64,000 bases of DNA, from positions 30,776 to 94,775 of the forward strand of contig JAMCUS010000024.1 in assembly GCA_023379385.1 (NCBI GenBank). Reading direction: 5' to 3'. The DNA is from Thermoplasmatota archaeon (lineage in GTDB: Archaea > Thermoplasmatota > Thermoplasmata > Lutacidiplasmatales > JAMCUS01). Of this stretch, positions 1,448 to 51,040 are shown one piece after another (the first letter of the stretch is position 1; every line of letters starts with the position of its first letter). Below the pieces are notes generated by a model that saw only the letters and a program-made list of their open reading frames with translations, did not search any database and was not told where the DNA came from. A program made the translations under genes and the position numbers.

Positions 1448-3367
1448 ATTTAGATCTTTGTTAGTACCTATATCGCCTGAAGGAAGAATGCTCATAATAT
1501 AGTCCATACCAACGCCTGTTTTTTTAGATAAAACTCTTGCAAAATCCTCCTTTTTTATATCTCCTGGATATATCCTTATGTGATGCTCATTTTCATTTTT
1601 ATTTTTTATGTATGAGTAAGGGACGATTTTCAATTTTCTGGAGTTATCAAAATCATCTATAAAAATGGCCATCTCAAGTGGTATTTTGTAAATATAGTTT
1701 TTGTTACCATAGATTATCCAGCTACCTTTAGCTATATATTCTCCTGTTGGTGCTGATTTACTTACCTGTTCTGGTGTTACCCAGAAAGCATCCGCCGATA
1801 CATGTTTCACGGCCCAGGCACGAGAATAGCATATTGAAAACTGGCATGCTTCATAAATGGATTTTTCTGAAATAATTGTGTTATTGCTTTTTACTATAGT
1901 AACCGCAGCACCGTGGATATCTGCATGAATGAATAGATCACGTTCCTTCAGGTAGTGTTTCACAACATAATCATTATCCTTTGCATTTTTACCGGATATA
2001 ACGATATTGCCATCTGAGGTTACGAACCAATGGTACCTTTCATACCATTTTCTTTTTGCATTATCAACATGATCCGTGCTATTGTTGTGAACAATAACCT
2101 TCTTATGTTCCAGTCCAGATAAGTCCTGCTCTATCTTTTTTAACTGTATATTGTATCCCTTTATCATTTCGTATAATCTGTTAACAGACAGTTCAATTTT
2201 TTTGTTCAAATAAAATGGTATTTCATATTCATTAAATTTGAAAATAGCTACATGTTCCTTGGGGATATATTTTATAATCATACCTTTTTCCATTAGTTTA
2301 TTAATTACAGATTGTTCCACCTCTGCAGTGCCAAATTGTTTTAGTACATCCAAGAAAATGTTATAATTATTGTATATCTCTGCTATCCATTTTTTGTGAA
2401 GATCCATTTCATTCCTAACTCTGTTAATTTCGGCATAAAGGTGATCTTTTTGTTTTCTTAGGTTCTCCTCCTCCTCTTTTATTATATTATCATTTTCCCT
2501 ATTTTTTATTAACTTATATCTTTCTATCAAAACATCTGATATTGTGGTATATATTTGCCAGTTATCTGCATTGCTATTATCATTTATTATATCAATCTCT
2601 CCTGTAACTTTATTAAACCATAAGCAATGCAGATCATCAGCAGTTTTTAGTAATGATATCCATAAACGATATATTTCACTATATACAGAAACATCAACCT
2701 CTTTTGCAGGGAAATGGATATCCATAGCTAATTTTTTTAATATATAATTTGCAACCTCCTTTCCCATAGCAACATCTGATGATAAAAATTGAATGATGGT
2801 TCTATCACTCGCCATTCCGGTTTGAAGCATAACTGTTTCATCCATTGATAGAGGATCTGCTCTGACTGGAGGAAATACATATTTTTCGTTGGGAAGAAGT
2901 GTCCTGCTCTTCCAAATCTTTTTTTCAGAACACCACTTTATTATCCAGTTCTGCAGAAGTGATACAGCCCCTGTACGAAAATTTTCTATAACTATTTGGA
3001 ATAACCCCAATTCTGATTCAAATTCAATGATTATTGTTCTATCAAATTTATACTGCCATACATCCTTTATTATGGATCCTGTTAAATATTTTCTAAACAG
3101 ATTGGCCACAGAATCTGGTTCGTTTTTATGAATCCATCTATCTGTTATAAATATAGCGTATTGTTCAATTATGACAAGTTCAAACTCATTAACTCCTTTT
3201 ATACGAATTGTTATGCCACCGGTGTCATGAAATATTTTTAATACCCTTCCGTTAACAGTTTTTTTTTTCAGTTCCATTACAAGAGCATGAATTGTTAGAC
3301 TGCCTATTTCGTTGTAAATTTTATGGTGATTCATTGCTAAATAGTTGCAAATTTTATGGGCATTCAT
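1430..3367 (-). CDS. NFACT-family protein (archaeal Rqc2/NEMF/FbpA homolog, DUF814)
   Basis: N-terminal 'SLTIHALVMELKKKTVNGRVLKIFH' NFACT-N signature, central coiled coil, 'LFIHADIHGAAVTIV' NFACT-R/DUF814 motif. The true start may be the Met at about 3334 (MNHHKIY...). Confidence 0.65.
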   Translation of the reverse strand: MNAHKICNYLAMNHHKIYNEIGSLTIHALVMELKKKTVNGRVLKIFHDTGGITIRIKGVNEFELVIIEQYAIFITDRWIHKNEPDSVANLFRKYLTGSIIKDVWQYKFDRTIIIEFESELGLFQIVIENFRTGAVSLLQNWIIKWCSEKKIWKSRTLLPNEKYVFPPVRADPLSMDETVMLQTGMASDRTIIQFLSSDVAMGKEVANYILKKLAMDIHFPAKEVDVSVYSEIYRLWISLLKTADDLHCLWFNKVTGEIDIINDNSNADNWQIYTTISDVLIERYKLIKNRENDNIIKEEEENLRKQKDHLYAEINRVRNEMDLHKKWIAEIYNNYNIFLDVLKQFGTAEVEQSVINKLMEKGMIIKYIPKEHVAIFKFNEYEIPFYLNKKIELSVNRLYEMIKGYNIQLKKIEQDLSGLEHKKVIVHNNSTDHVDNAKRKWYERYHWFVTSDGNIVISGKNAKDNDYVVKHYLKERDLFIHADIHGAAVTIVKSNNTIISEKSIYEACQFSICYSRAWAVKHVSADAFWVTPEQVSKSAPTGEYIAKGSWIIYGNKNYIYKIPLEMAIFIDDFDNSRKLKIVPYSYIKNKNENEHHIRIYPGDIKKEDFARVLSKKTGVGMDYIMSILPSGDIGTNKDLNLLEFK

Positions 3368-4463
3368 TTACTGAACCTCCATTTAACTTGCTTGATAGCG
3401 AACGGAGACTGTATCCTCCCGCCAATCCTAAGAATTCTAAATTCTTTGCACCTGCATGGTCTGCATTATCTACATGGCCACATCGCAAACATAAAAATTT
3501 AATCCCCTTACGATTTCTCCTGTCTATGTTGCCACATTCAGGGCATCTCTGCGAAGTCTTCCAGGGATCTTTGCGATATACGGATATCCCAAGCTCTTCA
3601 CACATCTGCTCTAACCGAATGCCAACCCTGGCATAATGCCAGAAAGACAGAAGTCTATTTACCCCACGTGAAAACCTTCCACGTTTATTCATCGTGACAT
3701 TTTTTAAATCTTCTATTACTATTGCCTTTACTCCCTCTAAATTCAGCTTTTTTATGTACCTGTTCTCCTCTGTTGTTATATACTGGTGATATGATTTCCT
3801 GTGCTTATCTACCGATAACATTTCTGCTTTCATTTCGCTTCCTAGGTCCTGTCCATCTGATGTAAACAGCATTGAATTTACTCCTCTATCTATTCCTATT
3901 ATTTTCCCTTTTGCACGTTTTTCATGTCTTTCTTTTTCTAATATTAAATCAATAAATAAGCCATTTTCTTTATTCCATCCTAATCTTATTGACTTCCCTA
4001 TCTGCCAACCGTCGTTAAGTAATGCATTTATTTGCTTATTCAGATTGAATAATATTACCACACCGGGAACGCCTGAACCGAATTTCACACACTTATCAAA
4101 AGAACCATCAAAACCATCTATTCTTGTGAATCTGCCATCTAAATTGGCTATTGTTTTATGGAACCTGGGCATTCTTTTATCTTTTTTTTCTAACTGTGAT
4201 GATATGATTTCTTTAGACTGCTTTCCTATGCATTGTGATAACCTGGCTGTAATATTAAATTTAAGGGATGTCCCATCTGTTACCTCCTTAGATAAAAATC
4301 CACTGGAGAAATCCTGTGCAGACCATAGCCTCTCTATTGTATAATTCACTGCCCTGTTATAAGTAACTAAAAACTCCTCAAGCTTATTGACCTTGTTTAT
4401 ATTTACCTCTTTCAGATATATACGGGATGTCCTCTTCATTTTATTATTATTGGTTAGATTCAT
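3354..4463 (-). CDS. tnpB: TnpB (RNA-guided RuvC-like nuclease, IS607/IS605 OrfB family)
   Basis: RuvC-I 'IGIDRGVNSM', RuvC-II 'IVIEDLKNV', C-terminal zinc finger 'CPECG...CLRCGHVDNADHAGAKNL' (RuvC-III). Overlaps the upstream tnpA by 17 nt. Confidence 0.75.
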   Translation of the reverse strand: MNLTNNNKMKRTSRIYLKEVNINKVNKLEEFLVTYNRAVNYTIERLWSAQDFSSGFLSKEVTDGTSLKFNITARLSQCIGKQSKEIISSQLEKKDKRMPRFHKTIANLDGRFTRIDGFDGSFDKCVKFGSGVPGVVILFNLNKQINALLNDGWQIGKSIRLGWNKENGLFIDLILEKERHEKRAKGKIIGIDRGVNSMLFTSDGQDLGSEMKAEMLSVDKHRKSYHQYITTEENRYIKKLNLEGVKAIVIEDLKNVTMNKRGRFSRGVNRLLSFWHYARVGIRLEQMCEELGISVYRKDPWKTSQRCPECGNIDRRNRKGIKFLCLRCGHVDNADHAGAKNLEFLGLAGGYSLRSLSSKLNGGSVNECP

Positions 4464-4994
4464 TCTTTATTACCTCTACTATCTTATCTTTCTTCCTCTT
4501 GCCCTTCCTCAGCCCGTAATATCTAGCGCACATTGATGTTACCATTGATATCATATCCTGCATCAGGTCGTTCCTATCATTATCCGTTTCATTCACTACC
4601 TCTATATGCTTCCCCAGCTCATTGAATAATATGTTTATGTAGTTGAATCCAAATCTGGTAAGCCTATCTTTATGCTCAACTATAAGTGTATTATAATTCT
4701 TATCTATAAATAATTTATTCAATTGCTTACGATTATCATCAACTCCACTGCCTGTTTCTTTGACTATCTTGTATATGGAATAACCTTTAGCTATTGCATA
4801 ATTTTCTAAACGTTGAGCCTGTGCATCCAGATTATTTTTATTTTCCGAACTGGAAACACTTGCATAAATGCATACCTTATGTGGGAATTTATTTCAATCA
4901 GATCATTTACAATAATTGTACCGGTTGGTAATGTGAAAGCATTTAATTTACCATCCTTCCATAATCTCCAAGCTGTTTTATAAGAAATACCCAA
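4447..4994 (-). pseudogene. tnpA: IS607-family TnpA serine recombinase, disrupted by a 1-nt frameshift between the MerR-like HTH and the catalytic domain
   Basis: N-terminal HTH 'MGISYKTAWRLWKDGKLNAFTLPTGTIIVN' (ORF 4806..4994). In another frame, 'KVCIYASVSSSENKNNLDAQAQRLENYAIAKGYSIYKIVKETGSGVDDNRKQLNKLFIDK...' carries the resolvase YA[SR]VSS active-site motif and continues into ORF 4447..4722. The frame change lies near 4885-4900 (ccc run). Confidence 0.6.
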
Positions 4995-6295: not shown

Positions 6296-8317
6296 ATGTC
6301 CGATAGTAATGATAACAGTTACAACGAAAGAAAGAGACTTTTAGAAGCAATGGATGAAACCAAACTATCAAAGTTTCATTTAAAAACATGGTTGGTATCT
6401 GGAATGGGTTTTTTTACAGATGCCTATGATCTATTCATTATAGGAATGGTTATTGCAATACTTGCAACTCCGTGGCATTTAACAAAATTTCAGGAAGGAT
6501 TGCTGGGGAGCACCTCGCTTATTGCTGCTGTTTTCGGTGCATTGATATTTGGAAAGTTGCTGGATGTATATGGCAGAAAGGCAATCTATGGCATTGAATT
6601 AATAATTCTTATAGCAGGTGCACTTTTGTCTGCATTATCTACCAATATAGATCAGCTAATTTTATGGCGGTTTGTACTTGGTATAGGTATAGGTGGTGAT
6701 TATGCAGCCAGTGCAATAATCATGAGTGAATATGCCAACAGAAAGGATAGAGGCAAACTTGTAGGTATGGTCTTTTCAATGCAAAGTTTAGGTCTTTTAG
6801 TAGGTCCTCTCATAACAATGATCCTATTACAGCTACCTATACCTGTTATGCTGGATTGGAGAATACTGTTGGCTATAGGAACCATACCACCATTACTTGT
6901 TGTTTATTACAGGCGACAGATATCTGAATCTCCCAGATTTTTACTTGCAGTTAAAGGTGATGTTAGCAGTGCAAAAAAAAGCATAAATCAGGTAGTTACA
7001 GTAGAAAATGAACAGAATATCAAAAACAATAATGTAAAAATAAATTCAAGTGGATGGATATTGTTTACCAACAAAAAGCTTCTCTTACTAACGATTGGTG
7101 TATCTTTGAGCTGGTTCCTCATGGACTGGGCATTTTACGGCAATACCATATCTACCTCTTTTATAATGGGCAGTATAGCAAGTAAAGCCTCTCTTTACAC
7201 AATAGCTCTGTATACCTTCGTAATATTTGCTGTTTTTGCTTTTCCAGGTTACTGGTTAGCTACCTCTCTTCTTGATACATTGGGAAGAAAGAGTATACAG
7301 GCAATGGGATTTGCTGTTATGTCTGTATGTTATATAACGATCAGTATTGTTCCTGCTATAATGCATAACATAACCTATTTTATAGGTATATATGGAATAA
7401 GCTATTTTTTTATAGAGTTTGGACCTAACGTTACAACTTTTGTGTATCCTTCAGAGATCTTTCCTTCGCATGTCAGAGGAACAGGTGATGGTATTGCAGC
7501 GTCAAGTGGCAAAATAGGGGCATTTATCGGTACATTACTGTTTCCGATACTCAATATTTTTGTACATATAACAGGGGTATTTGCAATACTTGCATTTTTA
7601 TCTTTAATCGGTGTAGTGGTAACAATTTTAATTCTTCCTGAAACCAAACAAAAATCACTGGAAGAGGCTTCGGGAGAGGATGAACTGACTGTTGTACTAA
7701 CACAATTTTCATCACAGTTATTATCTCTTATAACAAATGCTGAAGATGCTTCAGAAAAATTTGTTAAGCTGTGTAAGGAACCGGACCAGAATACGAAGGC
7801 AAAGTACGTAAAACAGATAAAGGTTATAGAGCATAACTCAGATACAATTGTTCATCAAATACATGTGAATATAAACAGAGGGAAAGTATCTCAATTAACC
7901 AGAATGGATGTTATAGCTATAGCATCCAGTGTTGACGATATAATTGATGAAGTAGAGGCTGTTTCTGCACGATTTGATATTTTTAACTACCCCGTACCTG
8001 ATAAAAGGATAATTGAGTTATCTAACATCATAAAAGAATCTATTAAAGAGATACATTATGGTATTACTGTACTTGATAGACTATTAAAAAAAGATTATAA
8101 GGATCTGGAAAAGGTGTGTATTAGTGTTAATACGCTTGAAAACAGAGCTGATGATATTCTCAGAGAAGGTATTAAAGAATTATTTAATAATGAGAAAAAT
8201 GTATACAGGTTATTGGTCTACAAAGAGATATACGAAAAACTAGAAGAGGTAACCGATAGATGTGAAGACGTAACTGATGTCTTTAAAGATCTGATAGTAA
8301 AATACATTCAGGAGTGA
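6296..8317 (+). CDS. MFS phosphate:H+ symporter (PHS-like) fused to a C-terminal PhoU-like DUF47 domain
   Basis: N-terminal about 470 aa with 12 TM helices and 'GFFTDAYDLFIIGMV', typical of the Pi-transporter MFS family. C-terminal about 200 aa is a helical PhoU/DUF47-like domain. RBS-like GAGAGGTGG lies upstream of the ATG at 6296. Confidence 0.6.
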   Translation: MSDSNDNSYNERKRLLEAMDETKLSKFHLKTWLVSGMGFFTDAYDLFIIGMVIAILATPWHLTKFQEGLLGSTSLIAAVFGALIFGKLLDVYGRKAIYGIELIILIAGALLSALSTNIDQLILWRFVLGIGIGGDYAASAIIMSEYANRKDRGKLVGMVFSMQSLGLLVGPLITMILLQLPIPVMLDWRILLAIGTIPPLLVVYYRRQISESPRFLLAVKGDVSSAKKSINQVVTVENEQNIKNNNVKINSSGWILFTNKKLLLLTIGVSLSWFLMDWAFYGNTISTSFIMGSIASKASLYTIALYTFVIFAVFAFPGYWLATSLLDTLGRKSIQAMGFAVMSVCYITISIVPAIMHNITYFIGIYGISYFFIEFGPNVTTFVYPSEIFPSHVRGTGDGIAASSGKIGAFIGTLLFPILNIFVHITGVFAILAFLSLIGVVVTILILPETKQKSLEEASGEDELTVVLTQFSSQLLSLITNAEDASEKFVKLCKEPDQNTKAKYVKQIKVIEHNSDTIVHQIHVNINRGKVSQLTRMDVIAIASSVDDIIDEVEAVSARFDIFNYPVPDKRIIELSNIIKESIKEIHYGITVLDRLLKKDYKDLEKVCISVNTLENRADDILREGIKELFNNEKNVYRLLVYKEIYEKLEEVTDRCEDVTDVFKDLIVKYIQE

Positions 8318-8469
8318 AGTTAGAATGTAAAAGAATGCCAGAAACAACCATTTTAAATTAAAAAATTAGTTTTTGAGTGTCTGTTTTTGGCGATTTTAGT
8401 GATTTCTATGTCGTATTAACATAATGTTAAATACTCCCACCATGATGCAAGATGACATCCAGATCCACT

Positions 8470-9846
8470 ATTTAAAGATTGATAGGGGTGTGGGGGAAGC
8501 TATAAATCTCCTCCCTTCAGGATGGAGATACATGGACTTCCCCCATCTTCCTTATCAACATCTTTATATATATATGTGCATATAAATGCCCTGTTATGAT
8601 TATATCAATACAGATTATATCCCAATAAAAAACTTACTAAAATTTTGAATGACCAAATAGAACTATGCAGGCGATTATATAACGCTGGTCTAACAGAACG
8701 TAAAGAAGCTTATAGATTATCCCAGACTTCTCTTACCTATAATTTACAACAAAATGAATTGCCTGCTGTTAAATCAGACAATCCTGAATATAACGATATT
8801 CATTCACAGGTTTTATGCGATGTTCTTAACCGATTAGATAAGGCTTATAAAGGATTCTTTGAACGAATTAAAAATAAAGGTAAAAAAGGTAAGAAAGCGG
8901 GTTTCCCACGTTATAAATCCAGAGGCAAATATAACTCCATTACCTATCCTCAACTCGGTTTTAAATTAATTCATAAAAACAACGGTTCTAAAAAAGGTAT
9001 ATTACAGTTAAGCAAGATAGGATATATTAAAATCATTGTAAGCAGAGATATAACATACGGTAAAATCAAGACGTGTACTGTTAAAAGAGATAAAGCAGGC
9101 GATTGGCTCGCTACCTTTACTGTGGAATTACCCGATACAGTTAAGAAGCCATTAGAACAGATTAAAGAACAGGATATTATTGGTGTTGATGTCGGCATAA
9201 ACAAATTAGCCGTGTTAACTGATGGTATAGAAGTTAAAGAGATAGATAATCCAAAGTTAATAGCGAAGTATGAAAAAGGTATTAAAACACTACAGAAACA
9301 ACTATCCAGAACAAAGAAACGCTCTTATAACAGAGCCAAGATAAGAAAGAAAGTCGCTAAAAAACAGCGTAAGTTAGCGAATGCACGAAAAGATAATCTG
9401 CATAAAGCATCTAATCAAATAGTGGAGAGTGAAAATATAATAGTCTTTGAGGATTTAAATGTTCAGGGAATGGTTCAGAATCACAATCTAGCAAAGAGTA
9501 TATCAGACGGTTCCTGGGGCAAACTGATAGACATGTGTGTTTACAAAGCCGAAAATGCTGGTAAATACATAGAGTTTGTAAATCCAAGAAACACAAGTCA
9601 GTTATGCTCACGTTGCGGAGCAGTTGTAAAGAAGGACTTATCCGTGAGAATCCATAGTTGTAATAACTGTGGATTAGTAATGGATCGGGATCTTAACGCT
9701 GCTCTGAACATAAGAGAGAAATACATACGGAACGTGTGGAACTCTGTAAAAATGCCTGCTGATGCTCTGACCTCTACTCATCTAAATGAGCAAGCTGGAG
9801 CGATGAAGCAGGAATTTCCGATGCTTTAGCTGAGGGGTAGTTCACA
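8470..9846 (+). mobile_element. IS200/IS605-family tnpB-only element (no tnpA), with a palindromic left end. The right end lies 97 nt upstream of tRNA-Ala.
   Basis: Ends were defined by comparison with the deleted copies at 50441..51000 and 45737..45945. The shared LE begins at ATTTAAAGATTG and the RE ends at ...GGGTAGTTCACA (9846). Confidence 0.6.
8600..9829 (+). CDS. tnpB: TnpB (IS605 OrfB family). There is no in-frame ATG and a 5-nt deletion just after the ancestral start is likely, so the gene may be a pseudogene or use a non-AUG start.
   Basis: 'YQYRLYPNKKLTKILNDQIELCRRLYNAGL' canonical TnpB N-terminus, RuvC-I 'IGVDVGINKLAV', RuvC-II 'IVFEDLNVQGM', Zn finger 'CSRCG...CNNCGLVMDRDLNAALNI'. 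The remnant copy at about 45.93 kb preserves ATGATAAGAACATATCAATACAGG in frame. Confidence 0.7.
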   Translation, partial: LYQYRLYPNKKLTKILNDQIELCRRLYNAGLTERKEAYRLSQTSLTYNLQQNELPAVKSDNPEYNDIHSQVLCDVLNRLDKAYKGFFERIKNKGKKGKKAGFPRYKSRGKYNSITYPQLGFKLIHKNNGSKKGILQLSKIGYIKIIVSRDITYGKIKTCTVKRDKAGDWLATFTVELPDTVKKPLEQIKEQDIIGVDVGINKLAVLTDGIEVKEIDNPKLIAKYEKGIKTLQKQLSRTKKRSYNRAKIRKKVAKKQRKLANARKDNLHKASNQIVESENIIVFEDLNVQGMVQNHNLAKSISDGSWGKLIDMCVYKAENAGKYIEFVNPRNTSQLCSRCGAVVKKDLSVRIHSCNNCGLVMDRDLNAALNIREKYIRNVWNSVKMPADALTSTHLNEQAGAMKQEFPML

Positions 9847-9943
9847 TAAATTATAACACTCTATATTTAAAAATTTTTGATAAGACAAAGTTATGTAAAA
9901 ATATATATATTTAGATAAGATGATATGTGTAGCACTGAAATAT

Positions 9944-10028
9944 GGGCCGGTAGATCAGCTGGAAGATCGCTATCTTGGCAAAAGATCCAAAATGGTAGAG
10001 GTCGTGAGTTCAAATCTCGCCCGGTCCA
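9944..10028 (+). tRNA. tRNA-Ala (anticodon GGC) with a putative 12-nt intron after position 37
   Basis: Acceptor GGGCCGG/CCGGTCC with the G3:U70 Ala identity pair, discriminator A73, D-arm GATC/GATC, T-arm GTGAG-TTCAAAT-CTCGC. Anticodon stem CTATC...GGTAG encloses TTGGCA[aaagatccaaaa]T. Confidence 0.7.
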
Positions 10029-10235
10029 TTGCAACTATGATTCGTGGTGTGATTGCTATAAATTTATTTGATTTACCCAAACTTTCTCTAAATTTTAATC
10101 CATCATCGGTATAAGTATTTCTGTCATAGCTTGATACGGCTTGATACGTAAACTATATAATATAGGTCTACATTAATATCCCTATAATTAGTATAGATGT
10201 CCGTATTGAATAATCTGATTATAGAGGGTTAATCA

Positions 10236-11201
10236 ATGTATAGAAAAGGTAAACGATTTATTAAAAATAGAAAGGCAGTAGCGTCAGTAGTTGGCACCAT
10301 GATGGCTATGATGGTATTTCTAAGTATCTTTACACTTATAACAACGCAATACATTCCTGTGTGGATGCAATCTAATGAGATAACTTTTATAGACAATTCA
10401 ATAGGTGGTATGATTTCACTAGATCATGCCCTTACCATGGAGGCAATATCCAATACAACTCAGATAACAGAAAGAACTCCTTTTAGGATGGAATCTGCAG
10501 ATGTACCAGTACTGTCACCTCCAACAGCAGGTGTGTTGACTTTTAATCCTCTTAACGGGTTATTTTACGTGAGCTTTCAGGTACCAACATCCAGTACATC
10601 TTCCGGGCCTAGTGGTTTTACTACGTTTAATTTAGGAACCTATAACCCAGGTTCTCCATCAACAAATTATGGAGGTGGATACGGTGGAAGTGTAGATTAT
10701 TATGTTCCTGCAAGATATGTGCAACCTGAAAGGATCGTGTATGAAGGCAGTGCAATTATTGTATCAGAGAGCTCAGCAATGGTGGTAAAGGTATCTCCAG
10801 AATTCAAAATAATGACATATACTGTATCAGGTACCACATACTATGAACTTTACCTAGGAATATATGGACTTTATGGACAACCGGCAACAGGAAGTGGTCC
10901 TGGTATTCAGAGTATTTATACAACTTTACTTGGTGAACAGCAATATAAGGAAAATTATGGAACAAATCTCGAGTCTACCACAATAAATATACTTACACCC
11001 TATCCAACTGCATGGATTAACTATTTAAATGGATATCTTTCTATACATGATCCTGGATCATACAGTGTAAGTAATCCACCAAGTGCTGGCCCACCTGGTA
11101 GCAATGAATTTCTTGTAACTGTAACTATTACAGGGTTATCAGCAGTGAATATTGTAGTTGCAACTTATGGATTTAGTATGTATAGTGGTTCATCTCTATA
11201 A
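10236..11201 (+). CDS. archaeal type IV pilin-like protein (class III signal peptide), Ser/Thr/Gly-rich and probably glycosylated
   Basis: N-terminus 'MYRKGKRFIKNRKAVASVVGTMMAMMVFLSIF' (basic residues then hydrophobic helix), several N-x-S/T sequons, RBS AGAGGGTT upstream. Confidence 0.55.
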   Translation: MYRKGKRFIKNRKAVASVVGTMMAMMVFLSIFTLITTQYIPVWMQSNEITFIDNSIGGMISLDHALTMEAISNTTQITERTPFRMESADVPVLSPPTAGVLTFNPLNGLFYVSFQVPTSSTSSGPSGFTTFNLGTYNPGSPSTNYGGGYGGSVDYYVPARYVQPERIVYEGSAIIVSESSAMVVKVSPEFKIMTYTVSGTTYYELYLGIYGLYGQPATGSGPGIQSIYTTLLGEQQYKENYGTNLESTTINILTPYPTAWINYLNGYLSIHDPGSYSVSNPPSAGPPGSNEFLVTVTITGLSAVNIVVATYGFSMYSGSSL

Positions 11202-45736: not shown

Positions 45737-45945
45737 CTAGATTTACAAACTCCACGGATTTACCAGCATTTTCGGCGCTGTAAATACATTGATCTATCGG
45801 TTTGCTTTCCAAGAGGCGTAGTCTGGTATACTCTCTGCAAGATTGTGATTTTAAGCCATGTTATTAGCATTTTTAATATTTTAACAGTTTTTTTATCAGG
45901 ATATAACCTGTATTGATATGTTCTTATCATAATAATACAGTGAAT
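45737..45945 (-). mobile_element. truncated remnant of the IS200/IS605 tnpB element (5' end of tnpB with ATG plus an internal fragment)
   Basis: The reverse complement matches element 1 at 8596-8670 and 9525-9600 ('...AAAATGCTGGTAAATCCGTGGAGTTTGTAAATC'). Confidence 0.55.
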
Positions 45946-50440: not shown

Positions 50441-51000
50441 TGTGAACTACACCATGCTAAAGCATCGGAGCTTCCAGCTTCATCGTTCCAGCTTGCTCAT
50501 TTAGATGAGTAGAGGTCAGAACATCCACAGGCATTTTTACAGAGTTCCACACATGCCGTATGAATGCTATATGAGATCTAACCTCTCTCTTATGTTCAGA
50601 GCAGCGTTAAGATCCCGATCCATTACTAATCCACAGTTATTACAACTATGGATTCTCACGGATAAGTCCTTCTTTACAACTGCTCCGCAACGTGAGCATA
50701 ACTGACTTGTATCTCTTGGATTTACAAACTCTATGTATTTACCAGCATTTTAGGATTTGTGAGTACACATGTCTATCAGTTTGCTCTAGGAGGAGTCTGA
50801 TATACTGCCTGCACAGTTCCAGCTGATAGTTTAGAATTTTAGTAGTCTTTTTATTTGGATACAGTCTGTATTGATATGTGTCTATTATAGATAGACATAT
50901 ATATATGTGTAGTTATAGTTATGTTAAGGAAGATGGGGGAAGTCCATGTATCTCCATGCTAAGGCGTCGGAGTATTATAGCTTCCCCCATTCCCCTAACA
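50441..51000 (-). mobile_element. internally deleted (about 820-bp deletion) derivative of the IS200/IS605 tnpB element that retains both ends (MITE-like)
   Basis: The reverse complement of 50925-51000 equals the LE palindrome of element 1 (GGGGGAAGCTATAA...ATACATGGACTTCCCCCATCTTCC). The reverse complement of 50441-50770 equals the tnpB 3' end plus RE. Deletion junction is at about 50770. Confidence 0.65.
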
Positions 51001-51040
51001 ATCTATAAATGTTATATACTCTTTTTGATTATATTCAGTC

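Follow-up and report, generated by a model that had tools for sequence, protein, structure and literature searches.

A tnpB-only IS200/IS605-type element with a disabled tnpB start, adjacent to a tRNA-Ala gene in a Thermoplasmatota archaeon

In the genome of a Thermoplasmatota archaeon (assembly GCA_023379385.1, contig JAMCUS010000024.1), positions 8476-9846 on the forward strand of a 64-kb stretch, referred to here as the window (64,000 nucleotides; 34.5% G+C), are occupied by an IS200/IS605-type element that carries tnpB but no tnpA, and whose tnpB frame has been put out of register with its ATG by a 5-nt deletion. We refer to this element as copy 1, since two further copies, both with deletions, lie elsewhere in the window. 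Judged from its sequence and those of its relatives, copy 1 is most likely a decaying pseudogene and an ordinary transposon relic rather than a TTG-initiated nuclease gene. No other genes were found within 8470-9846 on either strand, and in GenBank the locus is annotated as a 394-residue 'transposase' translated from a TTG codon (MCL4326027.1). The window sequence is 100% identical to a contig of the 'Candidatus Thermoplasmatota archaeon' metagenome-assembled genome (MAG) GCA_021792665.1.

The identity of the gene was established by profile matches and by alignment of its catalytic residues. The tnpB frame is open from 8600, after a TGA at 8597-8599, to the TAG at 9827-9829, and its translation from 8603 matched the Pfam profiles HTH_OrfB_IS605, OrfB_IS605 and Cas12f1-like_TNB, all above cut-offs, as well as the NCBIfam profile guided_TnpB (NF040570), with 320.9 bits against a cut-off of 100 and over profile positions 1-388 of 389. 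The best natural match in the PDB was the TnpB of ISDra2 (E=3.5e-56), so that a lack of similarity to TnpB/OrfB families, which would have undone the preliminary description of this locus as a tnpB-only IS200/IS605-type element without tnpA, was not what we observed. That description had also regarded the RuvC-I/II/III residues and the zinc finger as intact, and alignment to the catalytic columns bears this out: the aspartate at 9188-9190, the glutamate at 9449-9451 and the aspartate at 9689-9691 align to D191, E278 and D361 of an ISDra2-like chain, and the CSRC (9605-9616) and CNNC (9659-9670) motifs align with the zinc-finger cysteines of that chain. The conceptual product thus has both the TnpB family profile and the D-E-D and four-cysteine residues of the family, and it scored 277 bits with the IS200_TnpB model versus 162 bits with the IS607_TnpB model.

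What copy 1 lacks is an in-frame start at the conserved N-terminus. The ATG at 8596, which follows the left end of the element, lies in a frame shifted by one base from that of TnpB; it begins a vestigial 10-codon frame (8596-8628; MIISIQIISQ*), with the TGA at 8597-8599 standing upstream of the TnpB frame. Conserved sequence begins at 8603, no ATG is in frame, as had been recognized, and the first in-frame start codon is TTG 8645. The start regions of copies 1, 2 and 3 were aligned with those of the loci L007, L008, L009, L010 and L056, and the alignment confirmed what had been described as an apparent 5-nt deletion: exactly AAACT is missing between 8602 and 8603. In copy 1, ATGATTA is followed directly by TATCAATAC, while in L008, which holds a paralog from the same genome, AAACT stands between ATGATTA and TATCAATAC, and copy 3 reads ATGATAAGAACATATCAATAC; in longer context (ATGATTAAAACTTATCAATAC in L008 versus ATGATTATATCAATAC in copy 1) the loss of AAACT is clean. 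The close homologs (69-79% identity) all begin with ATG and the sequence MI(K/R)TYQYRLYPNKK.

The lesion was found, identical base for base, in every contig that has the junction between the upstream major facilitator superfamily (MFS)/PhoU transporter and the left end, in 8 assemblies (GCA_021792665.1, GCA_027378915.1, GCA_027379155.1, GCA_027379135.1, JGI 3300039716, ERZ27237009, ERZ27237373 and ERZ27237162). Since it is identical in 8 independent assemblies, the lesion is real and fixed and is not a sequencing error. That the missing nucleotides are an assembly or sequencing artefact and the true gene is intact is exceedingly improbable; it can be entertained as a general possibility only, the intact allele of 98% identity sitting at a different locus, and it is contradicted by the identity of the start region in contigs from 8 separate assemblies or samples and by the fact that the lesion site is not a homopolymer. 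The 98% allele, P0122, is a protein of 412 residues with an intact ATG (MIKTYQYRLYP...) encoded at another site in a related MAG, and because it exists, the copy-1 protein was evidently functional until recently, as far as sequence comparison can tell. A deletion just past the ATG would shift the frame of the first codons, so that no full-length TnpB would be made and the gene would be a young pseudogene. Other alleles at the tRNA-Ala site, which adjoins the right end of copy 1, carry lesions of their own: in L056 and L057 the ATG is intact but the frame shifts at about residue 220, and large internal segments are deleted in L052, L054 and L055. Such a set of independent lesions at a single locus is what neutral decay would be expected to leave. 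We therefore regard the locus as a probable tnpB pseudogene, or at best an N-terminally truncated gene.

The preliminary description had left two outcomes side by side, a nuclease silenced at its start or one that uses TTG 8645, and of these silencing is much the better supported and is the one we favour with good confidence. It is unlikely that the gene is still active through a start at TTG 8645, reached from a cryptic internal promoter or by re-initiation 17 nt past the 10-codon leader open reading frame (ORF), and yields a 394-residue TnpB that acts with its omega-RNA. The frame from TTG 8645 to 9829 is open and keeps all catalytic and zinc residues, its product still scores 307 bits with guided_TnpB, and a TATA-like TTATAT lies ~28 nt before the TTG. 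However, such a product would be short of the first 15 profile positions. The HTH_OrfB_IS605 match starts at the YRLYPN strand, which is lost, and the lost positions would include the strand that corresponds to the first beta-strand of the WED domain in the ISDra2 structures. Every one of the close homologs starts at the conserved ATG, no Shine-Dalgarno-like sequence precedes TTG 8645, the TTATAT encodes the conserved RLYP residues and is found in all homologs, and the sister alleles at the tRNA-Ala site are decaying. A second TATA-like sequence, TTTATATA, lies within the left end at 8563-8570, 25 nt before ATG 8596, and a TATA-like box is found at a similar distance before the ATG in L007, L008, L009 and L010. 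A spacing of ~25 nt between a TATA-like box and the ATG is the geometry of archaeal leaderless mRNAs, and therefore a transcript from this box would have its out-of-frame AUG read, giving the 10-residue peptide. Frameshifting or slippage on the A-run at 8627-8632 was considered as a means of restoring the frame and was ruled out, as the ATG frame already stops at the TAA at 8626-8628; a later shift of frame was also rejected, as the conserved YQYRLYP residues would still be lost.

The assignment of copy 1 to the IS200/IS605 family is based on its ends as well as its protein. Its left end (8476-8595) holds a G-rich palindrome, GGGGGAAG...CTTCCCCC (8492-8544), which had been described as the left end itself; the palindrome is real and forms the core of a 94-nt imperfect hairpin (8473-8566), but the boundary formerly placed at 8470 has been moved to 8476, as the TTTAA directly 5' of the left end (8471-8475) is its target. 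The hairpin folds as DNA with -22.9 kcal/mol, compared with -9.7±2.3 for shuffled sequences (z=-5.7; 0 of 200 shuffles as good). Because it lies upstream of the TATA-like box, it more likely acts as DNA and is unlikely to be part of the tnpB mRNA. Among 41 distinct left-end instances, 39 are preceded at the junction by TTAT (36) or TTAA (3), a T stands before these four letters in 30 of the 39, and 37 different 20-nt flanks are found further upstream. Based on the occurrence of TTAW at 39 of 41 junctions with 37 unrelated flanks, TTTAA 8471-8475 is best read as the target or transposon-adjacent motif (TAM), with the element starting at 8476. Direct repeats were not seen flanking copy 1, copy 2, L008 or L010, and there was no inverted repeat between the two ends of copy 1. 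An empty site (TTTAA joined to TAAATTATAAC) was not found; the right end was there in each context of the downstream pilin-like gene.

The right end terminates in a motif at 9803-9846, finishing ...GGGGTAGTTCACA, that is common to 18 divergent elements. The family consensus for the last 45 nt is GAAGCAGGAAGCTCCGAnGCTTTAGCTGAGGRGTAGYTSACW. The boundary at 9846 (±1 nt) is where homology with copy 2, L008 and L060 stops; it had been derived from three copies in the window, and the position holds, but only copies 1 and 2 have a right end, with relatives from outside the window providing the remaining comparisons. In direct orientation, the terminal motif is similar to the 5' half of the left-end hairpin, and it contains two alternative small hairpins (CTCC..GC-TTTA-GC..GGAG and AAGCT/AGCTT), which are inseparable as models, each being ~94% paired across the 18 elements and the sequences being too conserved. 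A GC to TT change specific to copy 1 (GGAATTTCC) breaks one of the two. Thus, both ends of copy 1 carry imperfect subterminal palindromes that point the same way, the right-end stem being weakened, without terminal inverted repeats, and the element lies 3' of a fixed motif of four or five nucleotides, with no duplication of the target. A hairpin left end, a related right-end motif and a fixed target without duplication are together, by comparison with known elements, the defining marks of IS200/IS605-type ends. As such, it is highly probable that copy 1 represents the tnpB-only (IS1341-type) architecture of this family and is non-autonomous. It had been called complete, and its catalytic motifs and both ends are indeed present; the term is nevertheless generous, as the terminal stem is altered and the element may be a recombination mosaic.

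The same ends recur well beyond this genome. The 3' arm of the hairpin, GGAGATACAYGGACTTCCCCC, was matched at 41 loci in public metagenomes (hot springs). The signature of the family is TTAT followed by AGAAAC..GGGGGAAGC...GGAGATACAYGGACTTCCCCC at the left end and ...GAGGAGTAGYTSACW at the right end. The cargo behind the hairpin varies among the metagenome loci, comprising TnpBs only 27-37% identical to copy 1 or no gene at all, in short elements made of a left and a right end. The apical stem is preserved through differing complementary versions (ACGC/GCGT, GCAC/GTGC, TGCC/GGCA, CC/GG and TC/GA), and these compensatory versions include copies from a Thermus phage and plasmids. The hairpin architecture, with stems fully Watson-Crick, is found directly upstream of a solo tnpB in Thermus phage phiLo (MH673673.1; L069, 3001-3072), where tnpB is broken into two ORFs, and in plasmids of Thermus brockianus, among them NZ_AP025594.1 (L070, 2501-2574), where the hairpin also lies next to a solo tnpB; the TnpB of one T. 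brockianus plasmid is 39% identical to the copy-1 protein. Both the left-end hairpin and the terminal motif of the right end (...GGGGAGTCGTCAC) have been kept across domains, each time beside a solo tnpB. A BLAST search with the left-end consensus gave one phage match and no plasmid match, and a subsequent search with the Thermus left end gave three Thermus plasmids, each with the end beside a solo tnpB and with no autonomous partner among them. Searching the literature for the end motifs as strings returned unrelated primer matches only.

Unusual arrangements of the ends were also observed. At a few metagenome loci, among them L034 (4556-4612 and flanks), L012 and L035, the left-end hairpin continues into a long, perfect palindrome (TTTATAGAAACGTTAGGGGTTTGGGGGAAGC...GCTTCCCCCAAACCCCTAACGTTTCTATAAA) that looks like two facing left ends and abuts a truncated tnpB in L012 and L035. 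At L039 (318-709, reverse strand), two modules resembling a right end with omega-RNA stand in tandem behind one left-end hairpin, which suggests a nested or tandem insertion of geneless elements.

No candidate for the enzyme that moves these elements was identified nearby. In tblastn searches with two generic Y1 TnpA probes, every match within the window and ~0.4 Mb of archaeal loci, about 0.5 Mb in all, had an E-value of 1.3 or higher, and no tnpA neighbour was found at the archaeal homolog loci examined, on which grounds copy 1 is of the tnpB-only kind. The same searches picked up a Y1 TnpA gene immediately before tnpB in three bacterial relatives, L001, L002 and L005 (E 1e-23 to 5e-40), whose TnpBs are 31-46% identical to that of copy 1; a scan of the genome contigs with the copy-1 protein gave distant bacterial relatives only. 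By analogy with IS608 and ISDra2, the long left-end hairpin and the related right-end motif would be recognized in single-stranded form by a Y1 TnpA acting in trans, and members of the family would insert 3' of TTAT or TTAA without duplicating the target. It is conceivable, though unlikely, that this family of ends, which extends from Thermus phages to archaea with no cognate TnpA seen, is moved by a non-Y1 enzyme.

That copy 1 belongs to another type of transposon, mobilized by the IS607-like serine recombinase 3.5 kb upstream or bounded by terminal inverted repeats and a target-site duplication as in DDE-type elements, is highly unlikely. It is true that resolvase fragments at 4447-4994 adjoin another TnpB-like gene, and that the relative at L009 has inverted termini matching at 18 of 19 nt together with a 9-bp direct repeat. 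Copy 1, though, has ends of the hairpin type (type A), with neither terminal inverted repeat nor duplication, no serine-recombinase tnpA adjoins its tnpB and nothing of that kind lies within 8476-8595, the IS200-type model outscores the IS607-type model for its protein, and the resolvase gene is split in this genome and is part of a separate element with an unrelated TnpB. The latter element (3354-4994, reverse strand) has an IS607-like layout and consists of a TnpB-like gene of 369 residues (3354-4463; Cas12f1-like_TNB; guided_TnpB 97 bits) and a serine-recombinase (Resolvase) gene split into 4806-4994 and 4447-4722. The recombinase gene is an intact ORF of 182 residues in a further sample (L064, 16-564), and near 4630-4660, inside this element, several MAG contigs are broken. 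The ends at L009 (2874-2891 and ~4225-4254) are of a second kind, type B, which occurs in close relatives with 75-79% amino acid identity (L009, L006, L007, L056, L060, L068 and L072): they carry TGCTTTGGGACAAAATTA on the left side and the inverted complement of it on the right, bracketed at L009 by the direct repeat ACTGTTTAC, so that an anatomy of inverted repeats plus duplication surrounds a homologous TnpB/RNA core. L009 was the only available element with both type-B ends, and A/B and B/A hybrids exist.

The 3' end of tnpB and the right end (9700-9846) are the presumed source of an omega-RNA. By analogy with ISDra2 and SisTnpB1, a transcript of this region would have a scaffold likely spanning ~9700-9846, and its guide would be the flank from 9847 (TAAATTATAACACTCT..., 9847-9862), which agrees with the earlier suggestion that a guide would derive from 9847 onward and follows from the boundary at 9846 and the known mechanism of TnpB. 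The region is retained in geneless derivatives, and its right boundary is sharp. In the consensus fold, a long-range outer stem, CCUGY/RCAGG, is accompanied by an inner stem and a small hairpin; a few pairs show compensatory changes, in a stretch that codes for protein as well. The guide sequence had no second match in the window beyond chance.

Copy 1 might also provide an omega-RNA for a paralogous TnpB. We speculate that the right-end modules of decayed copies, namely copy 1 and derivatives without tnpB such as copy 2, act as dispersed guide RNAs used in trans by the few paralogs with a tnpB still in place, such as P0122 and the same-genome P0003, which we consider distinctly unlikely; if true, a copy with a dead start would still programme cleavage or homing at its own site. 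Very unlikely, in our judgement, is the proposition that the right-end/omega-RNA module beside tRNA-Ala has been kept for a host or trans function, as a guide for a paralogous TnpB or as a regulatory RNA, while the nuclease decays. The junction of right end and tRNA-Ala was present in all 6 of 6 contexts examined while the left partner varied, elements with both ends and no tnpB are common in related metagenomes, and intact or near-intact paralogs exist; yet conservation of the flanking genes equals that of the module (99.7-99.8%), indicating no special constraint, and the terminal stem of the right end is degraded in copy 1.

The other copies in the window and the variation among strains show that these elements act as substrates of homologous recombination, producing inversions and mosaics. 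Copy 2 (50441-51009, reverse strand) consists of the TAM TTTAT (51005-51009) and a 564-bp internally deleted derivative with left and right ends (50441-51004), matched by BLAST to 8470-8680 of copy 1 at 75.6% and to 9497-9846 at 88%; its ATG is mutated to ATA and it has a 17-nt insertion in the RNA region. Copy 3 (45740-45930, reverse strand), identified by BLAST and alignment, is a doubly deleted stump without a right end. As had been reported for a remnant at about 45.93 kb, it keeps ATG-ATA-AGA-ACA-TAT-CAA-TAC-AGG in frame, from 45930, together with ~115 nt of the RuvC/TNB region. L052 and L054 run from the left flank and left end of copy 2 into the copy-1 right end and tRNA-Ala, crossing over near 9715-9720, within the right-end region that both copies share (comparing 9847-50440 with L052/L054). 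Such a junction would result from an inversion between copies 1 and 2, which lie in opposite orientations, and it looks as though strains differ by such a 41-kb inversion; the reciprocal junction was not recovered. Furthermore, L006 and L072 have a left end of type A but a right end of type B and other genes downstream, and L060 has the left end and lesion of copy 1, a body like that of L008 and yet another flank. The element, fixed in the population, would now serve mainly as a substrate for recombination with its paralogs. The same-genome paralog at L008 (3139-4356; contig JAJYUE010000007.1), P0003/P0123, has an intact ATG, a 12-residue internal deletion (LSRTKKRSYNRA) and a cysteine to histidine change in the second zinc-finger pair (HSHNNCG), and the sister allele P0123 has DMN instead of DRD at RuvC-III; judging from these changes, this paralog may also be impaired.

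It is important to note the observations that weigh against parts of this interpretation. Past the lesion the frame is open for 409 codons, and gene callers as well as GenBank annotate a 394-residue TTG-initiated 'transposase', so a truncated protein may be translated from the TTG. For the omega-RNA, the single-sequence fold is no better than those of shuffles (z=-0.8), covariation is weak in a region that also encodes the poorly conserved TnpB tail, and a covariance-model search, proposed in the preliminary description as a means of finding omega-RNA or IS605 right-end models, matched only the tRNA when Rfam was run in E-value mode over 8000-10500, with no omega-RNA or IS605 RNA family. No TnpA matching these ends was found, so the mechanism of transposition proposed above is drawn from analogy. 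Finally, the mixed junctions among strains imply that the left and right ends of copy 1 may stem from different insertions, in which case the TAM at 8471-8475 and the putative guide at 9847 would not necessarily have been adjacent in an empty site.

The neighbouring tRNA gene (9944-10028, forward strand), which lies outside the element, was identified as tRNA-Ala(GGC) with a 12-nt intron (Rfam RF00005, 49.3 bits). The gap between the right end at 9846 and this gene is exactly 97 nt, as first described. In the Rfam alignment, GGC occupies positions 34-36, a 14-nt insert lies in the anticodon loop and G3:U70 is in the acceptor stem; the assignment to alanine is based on the GGC and the G3:U70 pair. 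ARAGORN reported it as its sole tRNA in the window and called it Cys(gca) at 9943-10029, a call that we rejected as an intron artefact. Nothing suggests a functional link between the tRNA and the element, and the TATA-like sequence of the tRNA gene lies outside the element.

One of the characterized systems closest to copy 1 is ISDra2 of Deinococcus radiodurans (TnpB structures PDB 8BF8, 8EXA and 8H1J). The two are alike in protein architecture, including the D/E/D and four-cysteine columns, in an RNA scaffold that overlaps the tail of tnpB as well as the right end and takes its guide from the flank, which for copy 1 is a prediction, and in a 5' target motif that abuts the left end without target duplication. 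In contrast to ISDra2, copy 1 has no tnpA, a TTTAW-like target (TTGAT in ISDra2), an archaeal host, a destroyed start codon and a much longer left-end hairpin (~94 nt). SisTnpB1 of Sulfolobus islandicus REY15A has an experimentally determined TAM of 5'-TTTAA, and solo tnpB genes occur in that strain beside tnpA-linked copies (bioRxiv 10.1101/2023.03.06.531077). It is likewise an IS200/IS605 TnpB of a thermoacidophilic archaeon, and its TAM matches 8471-8475; copy 1 differs in belonging to the Thermoplasmatota and in being start-disabled. Solo TnpBs are reported to share ends with transposase-bearing elements and to be mobile, presumably in trans (Altae-Tran et al. 2023, PMC10691335). Copy 1 resembles such IS1341-type TnpBs as a single-gene element with asymmetric IS200/IS605-like ends, present at many sites and with no transposase nearby, and it differs from them in that an autonomous partner with these ends was not found here and in that its end signature is shared across domains (phiLo and Thermus plasmids). 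Copy 2 and the many metagenome loci that keep only the left-end hairpin and the right-end RNA module are similar to palindrome-associated transposable elements (PATEs) or miniature inverted-repeat transposable elements (MITEs), except that these derivatives keep a long omega-RNA-like module and not just two TnpA-binding hairpins.

These results leave the current understanding of TnpB biology unchanged; solo TnpBs within IS200/IS605-like ends were already known. For annotation, a start-disabled tnpB within a delimited element would be a more fitting label for MCL4326027.1. Among strains, inversions and mosaics have their breakpoints in the copies, which is relevant to assembling and comparing these MAGs. 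A family of TnpB elements from thermoacidophilic archaea is now described by its TTTAW target, left-end hairpin signature, right-end terminal motif and guide start, and within it P0122 is, on the basis of its sequence, a candidate for a heat- and acid-adapted RNA-guided nuclease.

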